Below, in pieces: positions 9,000-54,054 of a stretch of 64,000 nucleotides of DNA. A program made the position numbers and the translations under genes. Source of the DNA: Candidatus Fermentithermobacillaceae bacterium UBA3951 (GTDB lineage: Bacteria > Bacillota > Sulfobacillia > Fermentithermobacillales > Fermentithermobacillaceae); contig DGDN01000043.1 in NCBI GenBank assembly GCA_002385465.1, forward strand, positions 2,927-66,926, written 5' to 3'. Position 1 is the first letter of the stretch. The number at the start of each line of letters is the position of its first letter. Below the pieces are notes generated by a model. It saw nothing but the letters and a program-made list of their open reading frames with translations, ran no database searches and was not told the origin of the DNA.

Positions 9000-10244
9000 T
9001 TATCGCTTGAGGTTCACGAGCTCTTGAAGGAGCTCATCTGAAACCGTGATGATCCTCGAGTTCGCCTGGAACCCTCTCTGAGTGATGATCATCTGGGTGA
9101 ATTCCTCAGAAAGGTCTACGTTGGACATCTCCAGCGAACTGGGCGCTATCGTCCCTCGCCCGGCCGTACCGGCCTCACCGATATCGGCGGTACCCGAGTT
9201 GTTGGACTCAACATACAGGTTCTTGCCCAGCGCTTGGAGCCCCGCAGGGTTCGGGAAGCTCGCGACCGCCAGCTGGCCCAATATCCTCGTTTGCCCGTTG
9301 GAGTAGAACCCAGAGATAATACCCCTGGAGTCGAAAGTGAAGGACTCCAAAGTACCCGTCGGGTGACCGTCAATCACATCGGTATCGATGGTCGTAGGCC
9401 CCGCCACCTGGGTTACCTTGCTGAAGTCGAGGGTCAGGTTAATATCATCGACTCCCAAAGTAGCGCTAAGGGGGATCGTGACTGAGTCGCCGGTCACACT
9501 GTCAAACTTGCCCTGGCTATCGAACGTGATTGTCCCGTCCCCTGTAGCTCCTGTCGGGCCGCTCACGATCTCCCAGTACCACTCGTTTGGGTTGGTCTTT
9601 TCGAACTGTATGGTAAGGGTGTGAGTGCCACCCTGGGAGTCGTACACTGTAATGGGTACTTGCTGAGTGGTGCCGACCGCCGCCTCTGAGTTCAGATTCC
9701 TGTACCAGCCGACGTTTGCTGTCGCCTTGGCTTCCATGTTTGAGCCCAAGGCTATCTGGATTGGCTGGAGCAGGTTCTCAGGGCGCTGGGGTGGAAGATC
9801 TCCCGTCGTAGGATCTACGACCCAGCCCAAGACCTTCCGGCCCTCCGGATCTACCAGTATGCCGTCTCCGTCGGTACCAAAAGCCCCCACTCTGGTGTAG
9901 GCTCGCTGACCGCTTTCCAGGACCAAGAAATAGCCTTTGCCTTCAATTGCAACGTCTGTCATCCTCGACGTGGGCTGGAGGTTGCCGGACGTATGGTTGA
10001 TGTCAATGCTACCCACTGTAACACCCAAGCCGACCTGCATGGGGTTCGTGCCGCCGCGAGCTCCGGTATCGGTGCCGGACGGCGAACCTGCGCCACGCAA
10101 AGTCTGACTAAAGACCTCCTGGAACGTCACCCTCGAAGACTTGAAACCGGGTGTGTTCACGTTGGCCACGTTGTTGCCTATTACATCCATTCTCGTCTGG
10201 TGAGTCCTAAGACCCGACACAGCGCTGAACAGTGAACGCATCAT
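9000..10244 (-). CDS. flgE: Flagellar hook protein FlgE
   Basis: Conserved N-terminal rod/hook segment (MMRSLFSAVSGLRTHQTRMDVIGNNVANVNTPGFK) and C-terminal GFQANSRIITVSDELLQELVNLKR. Confidence 0.9.
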   Translation of the reverse strand: MMRSLFSAVSGLRTHQTRMDVIGNNVANVNTPGFKSSRVTFQEVFSQTLRGAGSPSGTDTGARGGTNPMQVGLGVTVGSIDINHTSGNLQPTSRMTDVAIEGKGYFLVLESGQRAYTRVGAFGTDGDGILVDPEGRKVLGWVVDPTTGDLPPQRPENLLQPIQIALGSNMEAKATANVGWYRNLNSEAAVGTTQQVPITVYDSQGGTHTLTIQFEKTNPNEWYWEIVSGPTGATGDGTITFDSQGKFDSVTGDSVTIPLSATLGVDDINLTLDFSKVTQVAGPTTIDTDVIDGHPTGTLESFTFDSRGIISGFYSNGQTRILGQLAVASFPNPAGLQALGKNLYVESNNSGTADIGEAGTAGRGTIAPSSLEMSNVDLSEEFTQMIITQRGFQANSRIITVSDELLQELVNLKR

Positions 10245-10358
10245 GGTTCTTCAAAAACCCCTTTCGTTTCTCGGGTATCCCGGCTCTCCTTCACTCGTTC
10301 CGGAGAGCTTGGCCTCCCAGAAAGGGTCCGGCCCGGGTACCGCTTTGTGCTTATTGGC

Positions 10359-10754
10359 TTACCTGCCAACCAGCACCGCGCTGTCTATGGAAGTGAACAC
10401 GTTTTCCTTCATCCGCTCTTCGGGGATCACGGTGATCACCGTTCTGGTCTGCGGGGCCACGACGAACGCGACGCCCTTCATGAGCACCAATGTCGACCTT
10501 GCGCCTTTGGCCGAAGCCGTGTCTACAGCGTTCTCCAGTTTCGCAAGCTTCTCCGCGTCTATCCCTTCCCCCCACGTCTTAAGGCGCTCTTCGGCGTGTT
10601 TCGAGAAGGTCACTTGCTGAGAATTCTTGACCTCCGACAGTACTTCCGCAAACGACTTTGCGCCTGGGTCTACTCGCTTTTCTTGAGGTCGTCCGCTCTT
10701 TACCGGGGCAGGCGACCTGACCTTTAGCCTCGGGTCTATCACTCTAAGCTGCAT
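10359..10754 (-). CDS. Small flagellar-operon protein of unknown function (resembles the family found between flgD and flgE in Firmicutes)
   Basis: 131-aa ORF in the conserved flgD-flgE slot. The identification rests on position and my recollection of TIGR02530-like proteins. Confidence 0.5.
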   Translation of the reverse strand: MQLRVIDPRLKVRSPAPVKSGRPQEKRVDPGAKSFAEVLSEVKNSQQVTFSKHAEERLKTWGEGIDAEKLAKLENAVDTASAKGARSTLVLMKGVAFVVAPQTRTVITVIPEERMKENVFTSIDSAVLVGR

Positions 10755-11256
10755 CTTCCTCTACCTCTACCCCTGAAGTCGCCGGCTCCGGAGCTTCGGC
10801 CGGCTCGGGCTCGACGACCTGCGGCTCCGGCTCAGGGCCCACGTAAATCAGACTGTCTATGGGAACCAGGTAGTCCCCGGACTTCACCATGAGATGTCCC
10901 CTGTGGTAACAGACGGACTCGACTACTCCTTCCAGAATACCGGCCTCGTCTTCTGCCACGAATGTCTTTCCTATGAGGTTCGCGGCACTAAGGAGACTCT
11001 GGTTCGACTGAGCTGCGATTAGGTACTGAAGGGTAGCCTGGACCGTCCGGTTCAGTTCTCCGATTTGAGTTGCGCTCGAGAACTGGGCCATCTGGGCCAA
11101 GAACTCCTGTTCCTTTATGGGTTCCATGGGGTCCTGGTACCGGAGCTGCGTGAGCATTATCTTGAGAAACTGGTCCTGAAGCTCTCCGGTCGTGCCCGTC
11201 TTAAACCCGTAGGGAACAGAGTTCCCGTATATTCCGCTTACTCCATCTATCGCCAA
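10744..11256 (-). CDS. flgD: Flagellar hook capping/assembly protein FlgD
   Basis: FlgD N-terminal domain (QDQFLKIMLTQLRYQDPMEP) with an acidic Pro/Glu-rich tail. Confidence 0.85.
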   Translation of the reverse strand: MAIDGVSGIYGNSVPYGFKTGTTGELQDQFLKIMLTQLRYQDPMEPIKEQEFLAQMAQFSSATQIGELNRTVQATLQYLIAAQSNQSLLSAANLIGKTFVAEDEAGILEGVVESVCYHRGHLMVKSGDYLVPIDSLIYVGPEPEPQVVEPEPAEAPEPATSGVEVEEDAA

Positions 11257-39691: not shown

Positions 39692-40393
39692 TTACTGGAC
39701 GAACATCTGACAGGACTTGGCCAGCTTCGATAACGCCCTTTTCTCGATGCGACTTACGTATGACCGTGAAATGCCCAGCAGCCTCGCAATTTCCCGCTGG
39801 GTCTTCTGAGGTTTGCCCGAAAGCCCGTATCTCAGCTCAAGGACTTCCCTCTCCTTCTCGTCGAGGATTTGAAGCTTTGAGAGAACGTTCTCCGCCTGGA
39901 CCTTGGCCGTGACGACTTCGGCGACGTCACCGTCTTCGTCTCTCACGAGATCGATGTAGGTGACTTCTCCCTCATCATCTTCGGAGGACAAAGGGTCGAA
40001 AAGGTGGAGCTCCGTCTTATCGTTCTTTGTTGCCCTGAGGTACATGAGGATCTCGTTCTCAATGCACTTGGACGCGTATGTTGCCAGCCTGGTGCCCTTA
40101 TCCGCCCGGTAGGTGTTTATGGCCTTGACGAGCCCTATGCTCCCGATCGATATCATATCCTCAATGTCTTGAGGGTTCGGATCGAACTTCTTCACTATGT
40201 GTGCAACGAGACGCAGGTTGTGTTCCACAAGGGTATTCCTGCTGTTAATATCGCCCCTTTTCACTCCGTTAAGGCAGTTTTGTTCCTCTTCTTCAGATAG
40301 AGGATGCGGGAAGTTGTTTCCACCTATGAAACCCAGAGAGGCCTCAAGGACCTTGATAATAAGCTGAGCAATGCCGTGAAGGGCGTTTACCAC
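39692..40393 (-). CDS. sigK: Sporulation sigma factor sigma-K (uninterrupted, with pro-sequence)
   Basis: Pro-region MVNALHGIAQLIIKVLEASLGFIGGNNFPHPLSEEEE matches the B. subtilis pro-sigma-K region around KNNAFPQPLSSSEE. Regions 2 and 4 (IEHNLRLVAHIVKKF, KTQREIARLLGISRSYVSRIEKRAL) are close to SigK. The GTG start follows GGAGGGTAGG. Confidence 0.8.
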   Translation of the reverse strand: MVNALHGIAQLIIKVLEASLGFIGGNNFPHPLSEEEEQNCLNGVKRGDINSRNTLVEHNLRLVAHIVKKFDPNPQDIEDMISIGSIGLVKAINTYRADKGTRLATYASKCIENEILMYLRATKNDKTELHLFDPLSSEDDEGEVTYIDLVRDEDGDVAEVVTAKVQAENVLSKLQILDEKEREVLELRYGLSGKPQKTQREIARLLGISRSYVSRIEKRALSKLAKSCQMFVQ

Positions 40394-40438: not shown

Positions 40439-42061
40439 TCAGGGTAAAGGCCTCGTGTGCGTGTCCGGCCTGAGAAGCCTTTCTGCTATGTCGTGAAAGA
40501 TGGGAGCAGCCACAGTGGGACCGTCTCCGCCTTCTTCGACGAAGACGACGATAACGTACTTGGGCGCGATAAGTGGCGTCCACCCGGCGAACCAGGCATG
40601 AGGTTTCCCGTCTCTGTGCCCTGTTTCTGCGGTGCCGGTCTTACCTGCCGAGCCGAATCCGTCTATGTAGGCGGCCTGACCCGTTCCGCTTCGGGTGGCA
40701 AGGAGAAGCGCCGATTGGAGTGTCCCGGCCGTTTCTTCGCCGAAAAGCCTCTTTAGGGTCTTATCGGAGCCGGGGATGAGTTCGGGGCTTTTCCACATGC
40801 CGCCATCCACGATCGAACGGTAAAATGCCGCTACCTGGAGGGGCGTGACCAACAGGTAACCCTGGCCGATCGCCAGGTTGGCCAAGTCGCCGAGGTACAT
40901 ACTATGGGCATTGGGCAGCACTCCGGGCGATTCTTCCGGCAGCTCCAAACCTGTCTTTTCCCCAAACCCAGAGAGCCGGGCGAACTCCACGAGCTCCCGG
41001 GCAGGGATCCTTTGTACGCACTGGATCAGGGCTGAATTGCAGGAGTATGCCAGGGCTTCTTTGACCGTGACCGTCCCGTGGCCGCTTTCGCGGGAACCGC
41101 ATGCTACTACCCTGTCGCCGACCTCGATGCTGCCTTCGCAAAGAAATGAGTCGGTCTCTCTCACGTACCCCTTATCCAGCAAAAGAGCCATGACAACCGT
41201 TTTCCACACCGACCCCGGGGGGAAAGCAGAGATCGCGCGGTTCACAAACGGGGAGTCGTGGTCGTCCATACACCTCTCGGGGTGATTTTGATCGTAGTTT
41301 GGCCTGGACGCCATGGCCAGGACCTCACCTGTCGCCGCATCCAGTACGAGCGCAGCTCCCTTCCTTACGCCCCTTTCGTCCAGGACGTCTTCTACGGCCA
41401 GCTGAACGGAGACATCGAGAGTAGTCCGTAGATCCGACGGTTTATCCTGGGGCGGCACAACCCGGATGCCGAGCCCGGGGATCCCGGTGCCTTCACCTGT
41501 TAGAACGACTCCGGCTGACGAGGGATACCTCCCCGATAGGGAATCCTGGAACCACTTCTCGAGCCCGCCTTCACCGACGTTGTCTCTGGGGTTTACGTAG
41601 GCATTGGTCCTAACGTGCCCAACTACGTGGCGGGCGAGCGACGAGGGCCCGTACCGTATTTCTTCCGGGACTACGGCCCAACCCTCCCCCCTCTCTCTCC
41701 CCAATACCTCGTCCACCTGTTCGGGTGACGCTTCCCTCACAACCTTTTCGGCCACCGGATCCTTCGAGCCGGCGCCTGCCGAGAGGCGGGCGATGGCGTT
41801 TCCCCATACGGGATAGTGGAGGGGGATCCCGTGCCTGTCCACGATGTTTCCCCGGGACAGCCCCACCGGGATCCCCATGTACCTTTGGTAGAAGGCGGGT
41901 TCCACGAACCTATCCGACTGGAGCGGTCCTATGAGCTGATACCGTACAAGGAGACCGAGGAGGCAGAAGAATATAAGCGAGACGGACGCTTTAACAAGCT
42001 CTATCCGTCTCTCGGACTCCTGGTTACCCGGCCTCGACCTAGACGCCTGCAAGCGATTCAC
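40439..42061 (-). CDS. spoVD: Class B penicillin-binding protein (SpoVD/FtsI-like transpeptidase)
   Basis: N-terminal TM and PBP dimer domain, with transpeptidase motifs SVWK, SCN and KTGTA. A sporulation role is inferred only from its position next to sigK. Confidence 0.7.
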   Translation of the reverse strand: MNRLQASRSRPGNQESERRIELVKASVSLIFFCLLGLLVRYQLIGPLQSDRFVEPAFYQRYMGIPVGLSRGNIVDRHGIPLHYPVWGNAIARLSAGAGSKDPVAEKVVREASPEQVDEVLGRERGEGWAVVPEEIRYGPSSLARHVVGHVRTNAYVNPRDNVGEGGLEKWFQDSLSGRYPSSAGVVLTGEGTGIPGLGIRVVPPQDKPSDLRTTLDVSVQLAVEDVLDERGVRKGAALVLDAATGEVLAMASRPNYDQNHPERCMDDHDSPFVNRAISAFPPGSVWKTVVMALLLDKGYVRETDSFLCEGSIEVGDRVVACGSRESGHGTVTVKEALAYSCNSALIQCVQRIPARELVEFARLSGFGEKTGLELPEESPGVLPNAHSMYLGDLANLAIGQGYLLVTPLQVAAFYRSIVDGGMWKSPELIPGSDKTLKRLFGEETAGTLQSALLLATRSGTGQAAYIDGFGSAGKTGTAETGHRDGKPHAWFAGWTPLIAPKYVIVVFVEEGGDGPTVAAPIFHDIAERLLRPDTHTRPLP

Positions 42062-42620
42062 GGGTATCTCTAAGCGCCTTAAGGTCTTCTTCCATGGCCG
42101 AAGAAAACTCCTTGAGCGACGACACCCTGTCGACCTGGCTTTGTTCCAGCCACCTTGCCAGATTTGCCGAATGCTCTTCGATTACTCTGGCGGCTTCTCT
42201 AATGCGCTTCCTGAGTCCCGCGATTTCCTCTCTAAGGCGCGTGCCCTCCTTTGATAGGACAGCCATCCTTGAGAGCCCCTTTATGAACGGGACTATGTCC
42301 TGCCCAGACTCCTCAGTGGAACGGACCAAATCTTGGAGGTAATCCAGGAAACCTTCTTCCCGTGATTGGGGTCCTTCCATTGCGGCAGGTTCTGTCTCTC
42401 CAGCTCTCGACTCACGCCCCTCAGTCCCCTGGTTCCTTACCTGATAGTACTTCCATCGAGCAGTGAGCCACGAAATGCGGTTCTTCTCGGCATATTCTTT
42501 GAGCGCCTGGGTGATGGACGCTCCTTGCAGTACGCGTCCCTCTACAAACTCTCTGAGGTCCGCTTCTTTACCTTCTTTCCATCGATATCTGGGTGACCTG
42601 GCGGTTGTTCCCAAAGACAT
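42039..42620 (-). CDS. RsfA-family (Myb-like) sporulation transcription regulator, putative
   Basis: RYRWKEGKEADLREFVEGRVLQGASITQALKEYAEKNRISWLTARWKYYQV aligns by eye with the RsfA Myb-like region (AWT..LLLAETVLRHIREGGTQL.AFEEVG..L.RT.AACRFRWNSLVRKQY). The C-terminal half is coiled-coil. Confidence 0.5.
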   Translation of the reverse strand: MSLGTTARSPRYRWKEGKEADLREFVEGRVLQGASITQALKEYAEKNRISWLTARWKYYQVRNQGTEGRESRAGETEPAAMEGPQSREEGFLDYLQDLVRSTEESGQDIVPFIKGLSRMAVLSKEGTRLREEIAGLRKRIREAARVIEEHSANLARWLEQSQVDRVSSLKEFSSAMEEDLKALRDTRESLAGV

Positions 42621-42846
42621 CCAGCTCCTTTCTTTTTCTGGCAGTATATGTTTCCTATTTTCGGGCGAGTTTTATTCAACCTACAGTCTGTCCGGTGCTT
42701 TTTCCGTACAGGTTCGTATGGACAGGTAAGGGCGCCGGCAGGTTGCGTAAACCGGCACAATCCGGGGATAATCAGAACCGGATGGGCGTACCGGCTTAGC
42801 TGCATAAGACGTCCGGCCGCCCAAGATGCTGAGGTGGGCTGAAAAC

Positions 42847-43980
42847 ATGAACATAGCCATGGTTAGCGACAGCTACTATCCCTACATATCAGGAGTTACA
42901 CGCGCGGTATCCACGCTGAAAGAAACACTTCACAAAATGGGGCACCGGGTAACGCTTTATTGTCCGGCTTACCCGGGCGCACAGCCCGAGGAAGGGGTAA
43001 AGAGGCTTCCTTCCCTCAGGTCTCCCACCAATGCTACGTACTACGTAGCCATACCGCCCTTTCTTGGTCTGAGAAGGTCGCTCGTCGGGAGCCGGCCCGA
43101 TGTCATACACATACACTCGCCTTTCAACCTGAGCAGGGCAGGGTACTCCATAGGCCGTCGCTACGGCATACCGGTGGTAATGACCTACCATACGATGTAC
43201 AACCTCTATTCCCACTACGTGCCGGTGGGAGGCAAGCGCGTCTCCCAGACCGTGGAGCGGATGGCGTTCAGGGTGGCAAATGCAGTGGACGCTGTGGTAA
43301 CCCCGTCTAGCGTCCTGTCCGACTACCTCAGAGAACGCGGGATCCGGACACCCCTCTTCCCTATCCCCAACGGGATCCCCGTGGAGGATTTTCAGGGAGG
43401 CGACCCGCACTACGCCCGCGACCGCTACGGTATACCGGGTGACATCCCCGTCATCATCTCCTGTGGCAGGCTGGGGGTTGAGAAAAACATAGAGGTACTC
43501 CTCAGGGCTTTCGCCCGCGTTCGGGCAAAGAAGGACGCAGCGCTACTGCTGGTTGGCGACGGCCCCCTCCGGGAACACCTTCAGAAACTGGCATATTCCC
43601 TTGGTGTTGGCGGCAGGGTCTTCTTTGTGGGTTCAGTCCCGCCGGAGGCAATGCCGCACATGTACGCCTCTGCGGACCTCTTCATGTTCGCGTCCCTCAC
43701 CGACACGCAAGGCTTGGTGCTCGTGGAGGCTAAGGCCGCAGGCTTGCCCGCGGTGGCCGTCGGCGCCCTGGGTGTGAAAGACATGGTAATCGACGGAGAG
43801 GACGGGTACCTGTGCGCCAACGACCCGGATGAGCTCGCCGATAAGGCGAGCTACCTCCTGGACAACCCCGGGGTCCTCTCCATGATGCAGGAGGCTGCAA
43901 AAAAGAACGCCATGGCCTTTTCCAAGGAGGCAGCAGCGTCCAAGATACTGGCCTGCTACGAATCGGTGATGCGCGGTTAG
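42847..43980 (+). CDS. GT4-family glycosyltransferase
   Basis: GT-B fold with an N-terminal MNIAMVSDSYYPYISGV and a C-terminal EX7E-like region (GLVLVEAKAAGLPAVA). The start is taken at the M at track-ORF residue 8. Confidence 0.8.
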   Translation: MNIAMVSDSYYPYISGVTRAVSTLKETLHKMGHRVTLYCPAYPGAQPEEGVKRLPSLRSPTNATYYVAIPPFLGLRRSLVGSRPDVIHIHSPFNLSRAGYSIGRRYGIPVVMTYHTMYNLYSHYVPVGGKRVSQTVERMAFRVANAVDAVVTPSSVLSDYLRERGIRTPLFPIPNGIPVEDFQGGDPHYARDRYGIPGDIPVIISCGRLGVEKNIEVLLRAFARVRAKKDAALLLVGDGPLREHLQKLAYSLGVGGRVFFVGSVPPEAMPHMYASADLFMFASLTDTQGLVLVEAKAAGLPAVAVGALGVKDMVIDGEDGYLCANDPDELADKASYLLDNPGVLSMMQEAAKKNAMAFSKEAAASKILACYESVMRG

Positions 43981-43989
43981 TACGGCGTG

Positions 43990-45465
43990 CTAGGCCGGCC
44001 GTTCAACTCGACCTCGCCGGGACAGCGCCTCCATGTACACCTCGGTATACATGGCAGCCGACTTGTTCCACGAGAAGTCGGTCTCCATAGCCTGCTTAAC
44101 TATATGGTTCCAGGTTGACCGGTCTCTGTATTTGTCGAGCGCGCGGTCAAGTGCAGCTACCAGGTCTTCGGCTTCGTAGCGGTCGAACAGAAACCCGGTT
44201 CCCGTGCCCGTTGAAACGTCATACTCACTTACGGTATCTGCAATGCCGCCGGTCCTACGGGCAACCGGGATCGAACCGTACCTCATGGCTATGAGCTGGC
44301 CCAGGCCACAAGGCTCGAACCTGGACGGCATGAGGAACATGTCAGAACCGGCATAGATCCGCTGGGCCAGGATTCCGTTGAAGCCTGTGGTGACAGACAC
44401 TTTTCCCGGATGGGACCGGGCCAGAGACCGGAAGGCCTCCTCGTAGCGCTCGTCGCCGGACCCGAGAAGCACGAACTGGAGCGGCCGCGAGAGGATCTCC
44501 GGCATGGCCTCAAGCAGTACGTCCAAACCCTTTTGGTCGACCAACCTGGAGACCATCCCTACGAGGGGCTCATGAGACAACGAAAGCCCCAACTCCCTTT
44601 GAAGGGCCAGTTTGTTGTCGACTTTTGCACCTAGGTTCCTGCTGTCATACGTCTTGAACAACCGCGGATCGGACGACGGGTCATATTCGTGGTAGTTTAT
44701 GCCGTTCACGATCCCGTATAGGTCACTGCCACGCTTCCTCAAGACGCCGTCAAGACCTTCGCCGAATTCCGGCGTCTGGATTTCTCGCGCATAAGTCTCC
44801 GATACGGTGTTTATGACATCTGCAAAGAGAAGACCCGCCTTCATGAAACTCACGTCGCCGTAAAACTCCACTCCTCCGGGAGTAAAATACTCTTCCCCCA
44901 AACCCAGAAGACCCAGGGTGACCTTTGGAAACCGGCCTTGGTACCGGAGGTTATGTATGGTGAAAACCGATGCGGTCTCGTTCCATAGGGCGCTGTGCCT
45001 TCCCCGGATGCGGATGAGCAGGGGGATGAACCCTGACTGCCAGTCGTTTAAGTGGACTACATCCGGACGGAAGCCCAATTCCTCGCAGAGGGGCAAGATC
45101 GAGAGGTTGAAAAAGGCAAACCTCTCTGCGTCGTCTTCGTATCCATAGAGCCGGTCCCGGTCGAAATAGTGGTAGTTGTCGACGAAATAGACGGGCACCT
45201 CTTTGGTGCCGCGGGAAGACTTGGCCTCTATCCGGGAACGCCTTACAATGCACGTCTCTTTCCTTTGCCCGACTTCTACCGGGAAGTCGGTAACCGTCGC
45301 GTAATCTCCAATGCGGCGATACCTTGGGAGCACAACCCTCACATCGTTGCCCTGAACCGCCAGAGCTTTGGGAAGGGAGCCGGCCACGTCTGCCAGTCCT
45401 CCCGTCTTGGCGAAAGGGGCTACTTCGCTGGCAACCACGAGTATCTTGAGTCCTGTGTCGAGCAT
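43990..45465 (-). CDS. glgA: Glycogen (starch) synthase GlgA
   Basis: KILVVASEVAPFAKTGGLADV GT5 motif. The start at MLDTGLKIL is preceded by GGGAGG and overlaps the upstream stop in a TAATG arrangement. Confidence 0.9.
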   Translation of the reverse strand: MLDTGLKILVVASEVAPFAKTGGLADVAGSLPKALAVQGNDVRVVLPRYRRIGDYATVTDFPVEVGQRKETCIVRRSRIEAKSSRGTKEVPVYFVDNYHYFDRDRLYGYEDDAERFAFFNLSILPLCEELGFRPDVVHLNDWQSGFIPLLIRIRGRHSALWNETASVFTIHNLRYQGRFPKVTLGLLGLGEEYFTPGGVEFYGDVSFMKAGLLFADVINTVSETYAREIQTPEFGEGLDGVLRKRGSDLYGIVNGINYHEYDPSSDPRLFKTYDSRNLGAKVDNKLALQRELGLSLSHEPLVGMVSRLVDQKGLDVLLEAMPEILSRPLQFVLLGSGDERYEEAFRSLARSHPGKVSVTTGFNGILAQRIYAGSDMFLMPSRFEPCGLGQLIAMRYGSIPVARRTGGIADTVSEYDVSTGTGTGFLFDRYEAEDLVAALDRALDKYRDRSTWNHIVKQAMETDFSWNKSAAMYTEVYMEALSRRGRVERPA

Positions 45466-46535
45466 TATGTGGCCTCCCAACTCCCCATCGCCCCGGCGAA
45501 CTCCCTGGTTGCGAGTTCAGGCGATGTGGGGTTTATGTACGTGCCGCTTCCCAACTCGAGCCCGGCCTCGGTGTTGAGCCTGGGGTAGACGTGGATATGG
45601 GCGTGATAGGGCCACCCTCGCTTGGTCTTCACGGACGAAGGCAGACCGTGGAAGACCATGTTGTAAGGCAATGCCGAGAACATGGACTCGTATGCTCCAA
45701 ATAGCTGTCGAATGGTAGCGGCGAGGTCATCCATCAGCGCATCGTTCATCTCTGTGAACCCGGAAACGTGCTCCGCGGGCACAATGAGGGTCTCGTAAGC
45801 CCGCCTTGAAGCGAAAGGCGAAAGGACGAGAAACCGGTCGTTCCTGAGTATCACCCGCACGTCCTTCTCGGCTTCACGCTCCAGAAGGTCGCACATGAGG
45901 CATCTACGGGTCTTGGATTCGTAGTCCTTCAGGCGTTGCCCTTCCAGCAAGATAGCCGGGGGCATGACGGGCAACGCGATGATCTGAAAGTGGGGATGGG
46001 TGAGCGACGCTCCCGCTGTCTTTCCACTGTTCTTAAAGACCTGGACGTAGGAGATGTCACTCGAGTCGTACATGGCCGCGCATCTCTCCTTGATGGCTTC
46101 CAGCACCTTCTTCATGTGGCCAGTGGAGTACGAGCCCAGAGAGCCGTTGTGTGCGGGGGATTCCACGACGACCTCGTGGAAACCCACTCCCGGAGCTTGC
46201 CAGTACAAAGCCCCCTCGGGAGAGTCGGGGAACGGAGGAACCCTCCACGCATCATCTTCTGCCATCCCGTGAGGCCTGGAGATAAGAGCCGGGAACTTAT
46301 TCGGTACCACCCGCACCGTCCAGCCTGGGCTATCGGCGTTTCCTTCCGTGCGATTCGCCCACACCTCGGGCGGGGTCTCCCGCTCGTTCCCAGGACAAAA
46401 CGGACACTTAGGATCCCTTTCGGGCAATTCGCCGGCTCCGTCCTGCGCGGACCTGTAATCGGAAGGCCTTTTCGACCTTTCTTGAGCGATGATTGCGAAG
46501 CCTGCGCTCAACACATCAAACCGGATCTCAGGCAA
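45465..46535 (-). CDS. galT: GalT-family (HIT superfamily) hexose-1-phosphate nucleotidyltransferase
   Basis: Zn site CPFCPGNE and active-site HPHFQI (HxHxQ), with VFKNSG and HAHIHVYP aligning with the E. coli GalT VFENKG / HPHGQI / HAHFYP segments. Confidence 0.8.
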   Translation of the reverse strand: MPEIRFDVLSAGFAIIAQERSKRPSDYRSAQDGAGELPERDPKCPFCPGNERETPPEVWANRTEGNADSPGWTVRVVPNKFPALISRPHGMAEDDAWRVPPFPDSPEGALYWQAPGVGFHEVVVESPAHNGSLGSYSTGHMKKVLEAIKERCAAMYDSSDISYVQVFKNSGKTAGASLTHPHFQIIALPVMPPAILLEGQRLKDYESKTRRCLMCDLLEREAEKDVRVILRNDRFLVLSPFASRRAYETLIVPAEHVSGFTEMNDALMDDLAATIRQLFGAYESMFSALPYNMVFHGLPSSVKTKRGWPYHAHIHVYPRLNTEAGLELGSGTYINPTSPELATREFAGAMGSWEAT

Positions 46536-46613
46536 ACGTATCGTCCTCTCAAGTTGGGCTCAGTGCTTTGACCCTTCGTTGGGCTCCCGGTAGTGCTACG
46601 CATCGTGCTTTAG

Positions 46614-46648
46614 GGGAACAAAAGGGGTAGTCAAGATACTACCCCTTC
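46614..46648 (-). terminator. Intrinsic terminator downstream of the CotF-repeat gene
   Basis: Minus strand AAGGGGTAGT-atcttg-ACTACCCCTT 10-bp stem followed by TTGTT. It lies between the coat gene stop (46674) and the galT start (46535). Confidence 0.6.
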
Positions 46649-46673: not shown

Positions 46674-47813
46674 CTACTGGCTCTGCCAGTTGCCCTGGCT
46701 TCCCAGCTGCCAGCCTTGACGCTGGACCCCAAGATCTCTCTGCCAGCTGCCGGTGCCGAAATGGGTGGGTGAACCCTGCATTCCTCCAAGGCCCTGCTGC
46801 GTCCCACCGTGCTGGAACCCTAGAGATGGCTGACCGGGTACAAAACCTACCTGTTGTCCCGGTCCGCCCTGGCCAAAGCCTGTGCCTCCCCTTGCCCAAT
46901 TGGGTAGGTTCGCGCTGTGGCCGGATTGATACTGGCCGCCGAAACCCATCCAGCTCGGCTCACCGCCCCACTGAGCGCTCTGCCCCAGACTCGACGGTCC
47001 GAAGCCACTCTGGCCTTCCCCGTACTGCGTTCCTGTCCAGCCCTGCCTGCTTACTGCCCCTTCTTGAACGCCGAAGCCGCTCTGGCTGCCGAAACCTCTC
47101 TGGGCCCACTGGGGGATGTTCTGGTACTGCTGCGTTCCGTGGATCTGGCCTGCTCCCGTCGAAATCCAGCTGGGCTGGCCACCCCAGCGCGCTCCCTGTG
47201 CCAGGCTTGAGGGTCCAAAACCGCTCTGCCCTTCGCCGTACTGGGTACCGGTCCAGCCCGTGCTTCCCTGCCAACCGGTAGACGCGCTTTGTGCTCCGTA
47301 CCCGCCTCTGGCCCAATCGGGAATGCCGCCTTGATGCTGGGTACCCTGGAACTGCCCGGTGCTTCCCGACATCCAGCTCGACTCACCGCCCCAACGCGCA
47401 CCCTGGCTCACGCTGGAGGGTCCCATACCGCTTTGGCCTTCCATGATCTGAGTGCCGGTCCAACCCACTTGTCCTTGATTCATGCTCACGTTAGTTCCTC
47501 CCATGTTCACAGTGGAATTCATGACTTGCCTCGACTGGTGAACGGCGTTTCTGAGATGAGAGAGCGTCTCCTGATCCGCTTTCCGAACCTGATACCAGCC
47601 TTTGGAGTGCAAGTAGTCAAAGACGCTTTTTGCCGCACTGGTTGCGCCGGCGTGGAGCTCCTGAAAGGCCGAACGCAGCGCGGGATCGCCCGATTCCAGG
47701 ATCGCGGGCGCATAGTAGTAGTTGGACAAGTACTTCTGTCCAGCCAGAAGGTCTTCGGCGATTTCCCGGTCGGTCATGGGTTTGCCGCCGGAAGATCCTG
47801 CCACTTCAGACAC
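46674..47813 (-). CDS. CotF-domain spore coat protein with C-terminal Trp/Gly/Gln-rich tandem repeats
   Basis: The N-terminus (EDLLAGQKYLSNYYYAPAILESGDPALRSAFQELHAGATSAAKSVFDYLHSKGWY) is a Coat_F-type domain. Residues about 117-330 form three repeats of about 70 aa (GWTGTQYGEGQSGFGPSSLAQGARWGGQPSW...IPQWAQRGFG). Confidence 0.7.
   Translation of the reverse strand: MSEVAGSSGGKPMTDREIAEDLLAGQKYLSNYYYAPAILESGDPALRSAFQELHAGATSAAKSVFDYLHSKGWYQVRKADQETLSHLRNAVHQSRQVMNSTVNMGGTNVSMNQGQVGWTGTQIMEGQSGMGPSSVSQGARWGGESSWMSGSTGQFQGTQHQGGIPDWARGGYGAQSASTGWQGSTGWTGTQYGEGQSGFGPSSLAQGARWGGQPSWISTGAGQIHGTQQYQNIPQWAQRGFGSQSGFGVQEGAVSRQGWTGTQYGEGQSGFGPSSLGQSAQWGGEPSWMGFGGQYQSGHSANLPNWARGGTGFGQGGPGQQVGFVPGQPSLGFQHGGTQQGLGGMQGSPTHFGTGSWQRDLGVQRQGWQLGSQGNWQSQ
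46824..47465. repeat. Three in-frame tandem coding repeats (~210 bp each) inside the CotF-domain gene
   Basis: The protein repeats start at residues 117, 186 and 258. The DNA shows recurring ccagctgggct / caccgcccca / ggtccaa blocks. Confidence 0.7.
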
Positions 47814-52956: not shown

Positions 52957-54054
52957 TTACTCTATGGGCTCCATCCGTCCGGCGAGTTTCTTAAGGACTT
53001 CAGGCATCGTGGTGTACTCCAGCTCTTCAAGCCCTAAGCGGTGAGGCTCAAAGGGGCCCATGGAGCGGAAGTAGTCCGCCATCTCGTTGGCGATCTGCCG
53101 GGCCCGGTCAAACGCGACGTCCGCAAAGAAGTCCTGGGGGCCTATGAGCTTGCCCTGGCTGAGCTGGAAGCCGAACGCCATAACTCTCGGAGGTCCGTCA
53201 AATCTGGTCGGAATGGCCTGCTCTGCTCCGCACGGCATGAGCGGCCCGTGGTGGGAACCCCTCATCCAGCCTGCGACAATATGAGGCTTGGAGAAGGGCT
53301 CAAGCGCTTCTCCAACGGCAGGCATACCGCTCTGGCAGCGGACGATCAAGACCGGATCGTCCTTACCTACGTACCGGCCGGCCATGAGGTTGAGCCTCTG
53401 TGTCGACGACGTGGCCGCGATCTCGCCGAGTGTCCTGGAGTAGACGGACTTCACGCAGTAGCGGCCTGGGGCACCGATGAACACTAAGAGGTCGTAGAGC
53501 TCTTCAGGGCAGTGGAAAACGACCTTCTTGTGTTCTATGAGGTCGTGGACCTCAAAATCGAAGCCTTTGTGCATCTTGGGGTCGATAACCAACCCGGCGG
53601 TGTTGAACGGGTCTGCGAACATCTTGTAGAGCGGGTAGTTCCAGGCTCCGGGCTCGGTCTTGTCAGCCATGAAGACTATGACCGGCTCCGAGGGTCTCTC
53701 TTCGAACTCCATCTCGGCGACCCCGGGTCCCAGGCCCTTTATGTTCCCTGAGAACGAGTCGCTGAGAAGGTCTTGCCCCGCCCCGTACAGCTTGAGTCTC
53801 TTGGCTTCCGCGGTAGCGGCAAGGAAGGCATCCCAAGCCAGCTTGTGGATGTCTTCGTTGTCCACGCCGAGAGAGTGAGTCATGATGAGCTCGATGTCGT
53901 CTCCCACGTGGTCAACGTGGAAGTCTATGAGGAGCCCTTTCCCACGCGTCTCGAGGTGGTCCTTCGCGGCCGCAAGCAGGTTCTGGTGCACCGATGAATG
54001 TCCAACGAACCCCCCTACGTCGGCCTTGATCACGGATAGCGTTACTTTAGACAA
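52957..54054 (-). CDS. fbp: Bifunctional fructose-1,6-bisphosphate aldolase/phosphatase (archaeal-type class V FBPase)
   Basis: Near-colinear identity by eye with the archaeal FBP A/P hallmark segments (VIKADVGG, LIMTHSLG, YGAGQDLLSDSFSGNIKGLGPGVAEME, ADKTEPGAWNYPLYKMFADPFNTAGLVIDP, WMRGSHHGPLMP, RFDGPPR). Confidence 0.9.
   Translation of the reverse strand: MSKVTLSVIKADVGGFVGHSSVHQNLLAAAKDHLETRGKGLLIDFHVDHVGDDIELIMTHSLGVDNEDIHKLAWDAFLAATAEAKRLKLYGAGQDLLSDSFSGNIKGLGPGVAEMEFEERPSEPVIVFMADKTEPGAWNYPLYKMFADPFNTAGLVIDPKMHKGFDFEVHDLIEHKKVVFHCPEELYDLLVFIGAPGRYCVKSVYSRTLGEIAATSSTQRLNLMAGRYVGKDDPVLIVRCQSGMPAVGEALEPFSKPHIVAGWMRGSHHGPLMPCGAEQAIPTRFDGPPRVMAFGFQLSQGKLIGPQDFFADVAFDRARQIANEMADYFRSMGPFEPHRLGLEELEYTTMPEVLKKLAGRMEPIE

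Follow-up and report, generated by a model that had tools for sequence, protein, structure and literature searches.

A GalT-like protein of the ADP-glucose phosphorylase subfamily as a conserved candidate partner of glycogen synthase in Candidatus Fermentithermobacillaceae

The genome of Candidatus Fermentithermobacillaceae bacterium UBA3951 carries, on contig DGDN01000043.1, a gene for a GalT-like nucleotidyltransferase that overlaps the glycogen synthase gene, glgA, by a single nucleotide. Both genes lie in a stretch of 64,000 nucleotides (positions 2,927 to 66,926 of the contig) that was analysed as a whole and is referred to here as the window. The adjacency of the two genes is kept in related genomes and recurs in distant lineages, and a functional link between them is supported by these comparisons. 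Placement of the protein in the subfamily of At5g18200, the ADP-glucose phosphorylase of Arabidopsis thaliana, is well supported by sequence. By the available evidence it is not a galactose-1-phosphate uridylyltransferase of the Leloir pathway, which is what public annotations call it. The reading preferred here, held with about even confidence, is that the protein would be an NDP-glucose:phosphate nucleotidyltransferase, with ADP-glucose as the probable substrate, that is coupled to GlgA and works more probably toward phosphorolysis; we infer its substrates, its nucleotide and its direction.

Coupling of the GalT-like gene to glgA

Both genes are read from the minus strand. The GalT-like gene (45465..46535) starts with a TTG codon and encodes a HIT-family nucleotidyltransferase of 356 amino acids with the domains PF01087 and PF02744. 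The glgA gene (43990..45465) encodes a protein of 491 amino acids. The coupling junction occupies positions 45463..45478 of the same strand. The GalT-like open reading frame (ORF) ends in GGGAGGCCACATAATG, and its TAA stop codon (45467-45465) and the ATG of glgA (45465-45463) have one A in common, forming a TAATG overlap. A Shine-Dalgarno (SD) sequence for glgA, GGGAGG (45478-45473), lies 7 nucleotides 5' of the ATG. An identical GalT-like protein occurs in four assemblies (two ENA metagenome assemblies, GCA_050952005.1 and GCA_029776355.1), and their public gene calls have the same 1-nucleotide overlap. As described in the initial annotation, then, a GalT-family gene overlaps glgA by TAATG, and both the sequence and the public gene calls agree on it. 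A lone overlap of this kind is common in operons and is weak proof on its own.

GlgA is a canonical GT5 glycogen synthase. It scores 563.9 bits against the "ADP-glucose type" model TIGR02095 (cut-off 328.45) and 490.6 bits against NF001899 (cut-off 459), matches PF08323 with an E value of 3.3e-84, and has both the K20-TGGL and the S381-RFEPCGL motifs.

Bacterial glycogen is classically made by GlgC, GlgA and GlgB and broken down by GlgP and GlgX. Nearly every long ORF in the window was annotated with Pfam and NCBIfam, and glgC, glgB, glgP, pgm, galK, galE and galU were not among them. Searches of the window by tblastn, with queries from related loci for GlgC, the GH57 branching enzyme and a nucleotidyltransferase-phosphoglucomutase (PGM) fusion, gave no match; no GalU query was run. 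The earlier statement that neither glgC nor glgB is nearby thus holds for the 64 kb.

Conservation and genomic context of the pair

The closest genome loci came from metagenome-assembled genomes (MAGs) of Candidatus Fermentithermobacillaceae, with GalT-like identities of 89%, 78% and 77%, and from Bacillota MAGs; they belong to the class DTU015. The order GalT-like gene followed by glgA is found in all 12 DTU015-like genome loci, with a spacing of 0-35 nucleotides and at GalT-like identities down to 48%. These loci share a longer order, sleB-ypeB-cotF, GalT-like-glgA, a convergent GT4 glycosyltransferase gene, and orf193-spoVD(-sigK). No glgC was found in the ±10 kb flanks of the 12 loci. A pseudogene had been considered at one of them, L053, where the GalT-like sequence (10001-11031) runs in three frames; ypeB, cotF and spoVD are broken there in the same way, and an indel assembly error is most likely.

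The pair was also found in at least five lineages beyond DTU015, in differing surroundings. In a Peptococcaceae MAG the two genes overlap by 4 nucleotides, a gene for a small CBM53 starch-binding protein comes next, and glycine-cleavage genes adjoin; a Bacillota MAG (L064) has the pair as well. At L067 a GH57 branching enzyme, a nucleotidyltransferase-PGM fusion and a GT4-like synthase precede GalT-like, GlgA and CBM53. At L065 and L071 one co-directional string runs from a GH57 AmyA-like protein through a GH57 branching enzyme, GlgC, a histidine kinase and a response regulator to the GalT-like gene, and glgA is convergent. GlgC of these clusters passes TIGR02091 with 427.3 bits (cut-off 424.9). 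The exception is L017, from Chloroflexi, where glgA adjoins the GalT-like gene on its upstream side and is divergent.

A glycogen cluster of this "GH57 type" recurs, with overlapping or abutting genes, at L071:1-8625, L065, L073, L079, L083 and L086, and no GlgP was found within it at these six loci. A NUDIX gene stands beside glgA in L071, and NUDIX genes are only sometimes present in such clusters. In two lineages the GalT-like/GlgA pair is followed by a stand-alone CBM53 protein of about 128 amino acids (L062:8817-9146, L067:8606-8992 and L068:2822-3208), which hints at an insoluble, starch-like product.

The frequency of the pairing was taken from a metagenome sample of 80 loci, picked by GalT-like similarity alone (34-41% identity) as the best 80 of at least 598. 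In 57 loci the sequence extends 1.5 kb or more downstream, and in 14 of these the next gene on that side encodes a GT5 GlgA; on the upstream side GlgA was the neighbour in none of 62. Fifteen loci were GlgA-positive when L083, with less than 1.5 kb downstream, was included; the genes are co-directional in 11 and convergent in 4. Of these 15, 7 have GlgC within 6 kb and 6 have a GH57 branching enzyme there. The families that recurred in a set of 108 ORFs next to the glucan-linked loci were GH57 (10), GT5 (7), NTP_transferase/GlgC (5), histidine kinase (5) and NUDIX (2); the PF00343 phosphorylase, GH13, GH77 and PGM were not among the families seen at least twice. The chance expectation for one given neighbour gene is well below one locus, so the pairing is strongly non-random. 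The functional link between the GalT-like gene and glgA that had been suggested at the outset is therefore borne out, and these gene-order data support the two as a probable functional unit.

The same family also stands beside another glucosyltransferase. Most contexts among 133 ORFs flanking family members of other phyla are unrelated to sugars, but in four distant genomes a family member comes directly after TreT, a trehalose synthase (trehalose glycosyltransferring synthase) that works reversibly on NDP-glucose and glucose (L025:8737-10969, L030:6128-11995, L043:3762-6031 and L050:8340-10963). The hosts are an alphaproteobacterium, another proteobacterium, a member of the Chitinispirillaceae and Glycomyces, and the TreT domain PF21269 is matched with E values down to 4e-60. 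Glucokinase, phosphoenolpyruvate (PEP) synthase or PPK2 genes accompany these TreT/GalT-like genes. The window itself has no TreT. This repeated pairing with glycosyltransferases that use NDP-glucose fits an enzyme interconverting NDP-glucose and glucose-1-phosphate, not a galactose enzyme.

Classification of the GalT-like protein

The protein passes both class I GalT/HIT domain models, PF01087 with 64.8 bits (gathering threshold 22.1; E 1.9e-17) and PF02744 with 58.1 bits (gathering threshold 29.2; E 1.2e-15). The HxHxQ motif and zinc-binding cysteines that had been read from the sequence are confirmed as H180-P-H182-F-Q184 and C44-P-F-C47, and the HxHxQ motif is invariant across an alignment of 47 sequences. 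The first zinc site, C44/C47/H129/H180, aligns with C63/C66/H133/H184 of At5g18200 and C52/C55/H115/H164 of Escherichia coli GalT. The second, C212(-L-M-)C215/H256/H311, corresponds to C216/C219/H255/H310 of At5g18200 and takes the place of an iron site in E. coli GalT, which has P196, V199 and Q294 at three of these positions.

Set against GalT and ADP-glucose-phosphorylase-like clades, a comparison that the initial annotation had proposed, the protein falls on the phosphorylase side by its scores, its shared columns and its position in a tree. The top sequence match in the PDB was At5g18200 (1z84) with 179.6 bits (E 9e-52); E. coli GalT gave 118.8 bits (E 2.6e-33) and human GALT about 100 bits. 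Over residues 71-356 the scores were 142 for At5g18200, 115 for Pyrobaculum aerophilum GalT (PaGalT) and 105 for E. coli GalT. Columns conserved to at least 85% in the prokaryotic family were compared in an alignment of 173 sequences, and 19 of them were common to At5g18200 and not to E. coli GalT; the reverse case was seen in only 4. In a neighbour-joining (NJ) bootstrap tree of 236 shared columns, a distance method applied to partial sequences with only two GalT references, At5g18200 was nested within the prokaryotic family at 94%, and the family with At5g18200 stood apart from PaGalT and E. coli GalT at 86%. The E. coli-type equivalog NF008724 (PRK11720) was missed by far, with 173.1 bits against a cut-off of 448. 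A further idea, that the GlgA-linked proteins form one monophyletic GalT-like clade, was dropped; the tested set had 0% bootstrap and the linkage is scattered over the tree.

It is largely the N-terminal half, together with the extreme C-terminus, that accounts for the preference for At5g18200; at the C-terminus a G-x-E-x-G...YINP...PE motif aligns with At5g18200 up to the end of the protein. YINP is the sugar-site motif, to which another motif corresponds in the Leloir enzymes. An AlphaFold2 model of the protein (pLDDT 93.4) has a two-lobed HIT fold.

Proposed reactions and their direction

At5g18200 is a plant GalT homolog without GalT activity that converts ADP-glucose to ADP and glucose-1-phosphate with a Km of 7 µM (PMC4136846; PMC6329318). 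By analogy, the two Cys/His zinc sites of the bacterial protein would hold its GalT-like fold and His182 would attack the alpha-phosphate of ADP-glucose, releasing glucose-1-phosphate and leaving a covalent AMP-enzyme. Phosphate (Pi) would then take the AMP to give ADP, and the reaction would be reversible. The protein and GlgA would be made from one translationally coupled transcript. Together the pair would carry out glucan(n) + glucose-1-phosphate <-> glucan(n+1) + Pi with ADP as a catalyst, a two-step version of what glycogen phosphorylase does.

From the sequence comparisons, a general function as an NDP-glucose/glucose-1-phosphate enzyme coupled to GlgA can be proposed with moderate confidence. 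For a putative specificity toward adenine nucleotides, with phosphate as the acceptor, the sole indirect support is that the partners are an ADP-glucose-type GlgA and TreT. Confidence in the phosphorolytic direction is low. Flux is expected that way because the equilibrium of the relative favours ADP and glucose-1-phosphate and because cellular phosphate far exceeds glucose-1-phosphate. The equilibrium constant of At5g18200, in the 2006 work of McCoy et al., is reportedly ~5-40 toward ADP and glucose-1-phosphate. At the phosphorylase equilibrium the ratio of phosphate to glucose-1-phosphate is ~3.6, and cells hold millimolar phosphate and micromolar glucose-1-phosphate, which makes net synthesis unfavourable. 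Phosphorolysis would drain or salvage ADP-glucose, and such scavenging would conserve a phosphoanhydride bond. It would also pull on GlgA. The E. coli enzyme is said to have been found measurably reversible by Fox et al. in 1976, and a reversible GlgA next to a phosphorylase of micromolar Km could pull glucan mobilisation, so that alpha-glucan would be mobilised without GlgP. Supply of ADP-glucose would be the less likely direction.

A broader proposal can be made tentatively, with clearly less confidence: the HIT enzyme and GlgA would be a two-enzyme glucan phosphorylase/synthase, with ADP catalytic, that replaces GlgP in the widespread GH57-type clusters. GlgA would run backwards, from glucan and ADP to ADP-glucose, and the high-affinity phosphorylase would pull the product to glucose-1-phosphate. 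The lack of a recurrent GlgP in the clusters is consistent with a GlgP-like role and is not proof of it. The same logic would apply to TreT and trehalose, and the TreT loci suggest a two-step phosphorolysis or synthesis of trehalose via NDP-glucose. Where GlgC is present too, GlgC and an ADP-glucose phosphorylase would together give ATP + Pi -> ADP + pyrophosphate (PPi).

A number of observations weigh against the proposed assignment. The broad model TIGR00209, "galT", is passed with 137.6 bits against 102.1; At5g18200 itself belongs to the same broad family, and the public name "galactose-1-phosphate uridylyltransferase" arises because this model is passed. Identities are low and differ little (34.5% to At5g18200, 33.3% to PaGalT and 29.0% to E. 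coli GalT), and the C-terminal half alone scores the E. coli, human and Arabidopsis proteins equally. The top 19 Foldseek matches, with TM scores of 0.70-0.89, were chains of At5g18200 and of class I GalTs, and the E. coli, human and P. aerophilum GalTs had 0.77-0.80; the fold comparison fails to part At5g18200 from true GalTs and was given no functional weight. The second CxxC, tried as a diagnostic of phosphorylases, was dropped because PaGalT, which we take to be a true uridylyltransferase, has it too. The pocket residues K80 (L95 in At5g18200, D78 in E. coli), P78 and E121 are family-specific and unlike both references, so that the nucleotide or the acceptor could differ. GalU is encoded in more distant DTU015 loci, which makes a role with UDP-glucose possible. 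To translate the synthase together with an enzyme that drains ADP-glucose seems wasteful, and a GalT-like gene in the usual place of glgC, with no glgC in 64 kb, fits the supply direction.

Alternative explanations and the link to sporulation

The supply direction amounts to a bypass of GlgC, in which ADP + glucose-1-phosphate -> ADP-glucose + Pi would feed GlgA, glycogen would be made without an ATP cost, and the ADP released by GlgA would be recycled. Besides the position of the gene directly 5' of glgA, its translational coupling and the lack of glgC in the window and in the DTU015 flanks, this is favoured by the reversibility of the HIT reaction and by the hosts being energy-poor fermenters (PMC10215811). 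GlgC is nevertheless clustered with the pair in L065, L071 and 7 of the 15 metagenome loci, roughly half of the clusters beyond DTU015, so in those genomes the protein is not a substitute for GlgC. Moreover, the bypass equals glycogen phosphorylase running backwards. By textbook values it would require a ratio of glucose-1-phosphate to phosphate above ~0.3, unlikely in gluconeogenic amino-acid fermenters, and the equilibrium reported for the characterised relative favours breakdown. An alternative route to the NDP-glucose donor in place of GlgC, as the initial annotation had it, is weakened by these points; it is unlikely overall and could still apply to this genome. A genuine Leloir-type hexose-1-phosphate uridylyltransferase (UDP-glucose + galactose-1-phosphate <-> UDP-galactose + glucose-1-phosphate), linking UDP-sugars to glucose-1-phosphate for GT4 and GlgA, would agree with the TIGR00209 score, the public annotations and the GalU genes of more distant DTU015 genomes, and the P. 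aerophilum protein 6K5Z, described as a uridylyltransferase, shares the second CxxC. Yet the protein is nearer to At5g18200, whose C-terminal YINP it has; the recurrent partners are glucose-only enzymes (GlgA, TreT, GlgC, GH57); and galK and galE, sought as GHMP kinase and epimerase, are missing from the window and from the recurrent families among the 133 and 108 neighbour ORFs of homologs. The Leloir-type link suggested earlier thus found no backing, and this account is very improbable. Hardly credible is the view that there is no functional link, the adjacency being inherited gene order and the overlap incidental. Many family members, for instance in Terriglobales and Bryobacteraceae, do lack a glucan gene nearby, but the adjacency recurs in distant lineages and different surroundings, and the downstream and upstream counts in the metagenome sample differ sharply, with L017 as the divergent exception.

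The pair might also be a sporulation-specific module, transcribed by read-through from sleB-ypeB-cotF, in which a granulose-like or spore glucan would be made or remobilised; either enzymatic direction fits. That the pair sits amid sporulation genes, as first noted, is correct: sleB, ypeB and a cotF-like gene lie on one side and a gene for a spoVD-like penicillin-binding protein (PBP) and sigK on the other, and this order is kept across the class. A G+C-rich hairpin found by a terminator scan, AAGGGGTAG-loop-CTACCCCTT followed by a T-run, lies 3' of the cotF-like gene (46622..46647, minus strand). The leader that separates the hairpin from the GalT-like start codon (46536..46621, minus strand) has 84 nucleotides and an SD sequence, GAGAGGA, at 46550-46544. 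In 9 of the 12 DTU015-like loci the corresponding distance is only 28-47 nucleotides, too short for a promoter and a leader, and the pair may therefore be transcribed by read-through from sleB-ypeB-cotF. No sigma-70 promoter match was found in the 138-nucleotide region between the cotF-like and GalT-like genes, which includes the leader. Judging from the spacing, read-through may tie the pair to sporulation. Against the module, the same pair occurs in other lineages without sporulation genes nearby, no SigK/SigE-type box was recognisable by eye in the leader, and inherited synteny could suffice. Thus the spore-associated glucan of the initial annotation keeps a weak standing, from a synteny specific to DTU015 and a possible read-through from the cotF unit, and as an account of the pair the module is rather improbable.

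The hairpin has features of its own. Its sequence is kept in 12 of 12 DTU015-like loci (equivalent sites in L001-L011 and L053), whose proteins have diverged to ~50% identity, and in L003 there is one compensatory change, TAG/CTA to TGG/CCA. The motif is unique within the window, and no Rfam family matched the leader. Being more conserved than an ordinary terminator, the hairpin may serve in attenuation or bind a protein; from its sequence and position, a terminator-like attenuator ahead of the GalT-like/glgA pair may be proposed.

Genes surrounding the pair

A GT4 glycosyltransferase gene (42826..43980, plus strand; start at 42847 in the public gene call) with the Pfam domains Glyco_transf_4 and Glycos_transf_1 converges on the 3' end of glgA. 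The 9-nucleotide gap reported for this junction is present (43981-43989). The GT4 protein stayed below every NCBIfam equivalog cut-off, the top one being MGlcDAG synthase with 154 against 400 bits. GT4 is a conserved neighbour of the pair in DTU015 only. In more distant DTU015-like loci a galU gene lies between GT4 and orf193 (L007:13862-14746, L011:13823-14710, and also L008-L010 and L053), and the GalU there scores 371-376 bits against TIGR01099 (cut-off 327). It is missing from this interval in the window and its closest relatives. GT4 probably uses UDP-glucose.

A flagellar operon occupies 2-18 kb of the window and is followed by codY, hslUV, xerC, topA and dprA; gerA/B/C lie at 26-30.6 kb. 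The sigK gene (39692-40393) passes NF004471 with 297.6 bits (cut-off 252). After it come the spoVD-like PBP, a 193-amino-acid ORF, GT4, glgA, the GalT-like gene, the cotF-like gene, a 60-amino-acid ORF, ypeB, sleB and mltG. The 193-amino-acid ORF (42039-42620, minus strand) has no Pfam or NCBIfam match and overlaps the start of the spoVD-like gene; its position is kept in most DTU015-like loci at 34-84% identity, and it may be a lineage-specific sporulation protein. In the cotF-like protein (46674-47813, minus strand) the Coat_F domain is confined to the first ~76 residues. The tail of ~300 residues is rich in Gly, Gln, Ser and Trp, and in it a repeat of ~45 residues (WTGTQ..EGQSG.GPSS..QGA.WGG..SW) occurs three times, from residues 118, 187 and 259 onward.

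The far end of the window has a bifunctional fructose-1,6-bisphosphate (FBP) aldolase/phosphatase gene (52957-54054, minus strand), which marks a gluconeogenic lifestyle, and finally alaS and proS. Members of DTU015, described from one closed MAG, are thermophilic, spore-forming organisms that ferment peptides and amino acids, and DTU015 genomes encode pyruvate phosphate dikinase and a PPi-driven pump (PMC10215811). The closed MAG was reported without glucokinase and without phosphoglucose isomerase, so that glycogen metabolism would be cut off unless an unrecognised isomerase exists. That paper and its supplements make no mention of glycogen, glgC or phosphoglucomutase.

Implications and comparison with known systems

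The enzyme family, the fold and GlgA were known already; the new element is a conserved, mis-annotated partner of glycogen synthase. It is a position-specific partner of GlgA that pipelines label as a galactose enzyme, present throughout a class of uncultured thermophilic fermenters and at roughly one in four of the environmental loci of its family that were sampled. No description of a GalT-like/GlgA module, a TreT/GalT-like module or a prokaryotic ADP-glucose phosphorylase was found in a literature whose coverage was incomplete, so an earlier description is possible. The literature found on ADP-glucose phosphorylase activity concerned plants only, and no GalT or HIT partner appears in a 2024 Chem Rev review of the prokaryotic enzymes of alpha-glucan metabolism. 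To our knowledge EC 2.7.7.36 has been an orphan activity since the 1960s, with no physiological role known. If the protein is an ADP-glucose phosphorylase, many MAG reconstructions would stop inferring galactose use. The pair would then give EC 2.7.7.36 its first physiological role and bacterial alpha-glucan metabolism an unrecognised step. It would also provide an ATP-neutral route between glucan or trehalose and glucose-1-phosphate, which bears on energy-limited anaerobes and on GlgC-independent pools of ADP-glucose.

At5g18200 (EC 2.7.7.36; PDB 1Z84, 2H39) is the best match in sequence and structure, with HxHxQ, both zinc sites and YINP in common. The plant enzyme is stand-alone and cytosolic, whereas the bacterial gene shares an operon with that of glycogen synthase and K80, P78 and E121 are specific to the prokaryotic family. 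Class I Leloir GalTs (1HXP, human GALT, 6K5Z) share the two-lobed HIT fold, HxHxQ and the first zinc site; the present protein differs from them in failing to reach NF008724, in its lower scores against them, and in having glucose-polymer and trehalose enzymes for partners in place of a galK/galE context.

The classical glgC-glgA operon, with glgB, glgP or glgX, likewise has a GT5 GlgA after a co-translated nucleotide-sugar enzyme, and in other lineages the pair belongs to complete clusters that include GlgC and a branching enzyme. Here, however, the partner is of the HIT phosphorylase type and not the GlgC pyrophosphorylase, and the branching enzymes of related clusters are GH57, not GH13. 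Glycogen cycling was proposed as a source of PPi in Clostridium thermocellum, in a cycle that uses GlgP and was found non-essential (PMC8863071). There too, ADP-glucose from GlgC is turned over again; the likeness is conceptual only. The ADP-sugar pyrophosphatase AspP also turns over ADP-glucose, but hydrolyses it instead of phosphorolysing it.

The TreT clusters resemble the pair in that a reversible NDP-glucose-dependent glycosyltransferase adjoins the same GalT-like family. They differ in that the TreT gene comes first and in having glucokinase, PEP synthase and PPK2 instead of glycogen genes. The two arrangements suggest a common logic, in which an NDP-glucose transferase is paired with an NDP-glucose phosphorylase.

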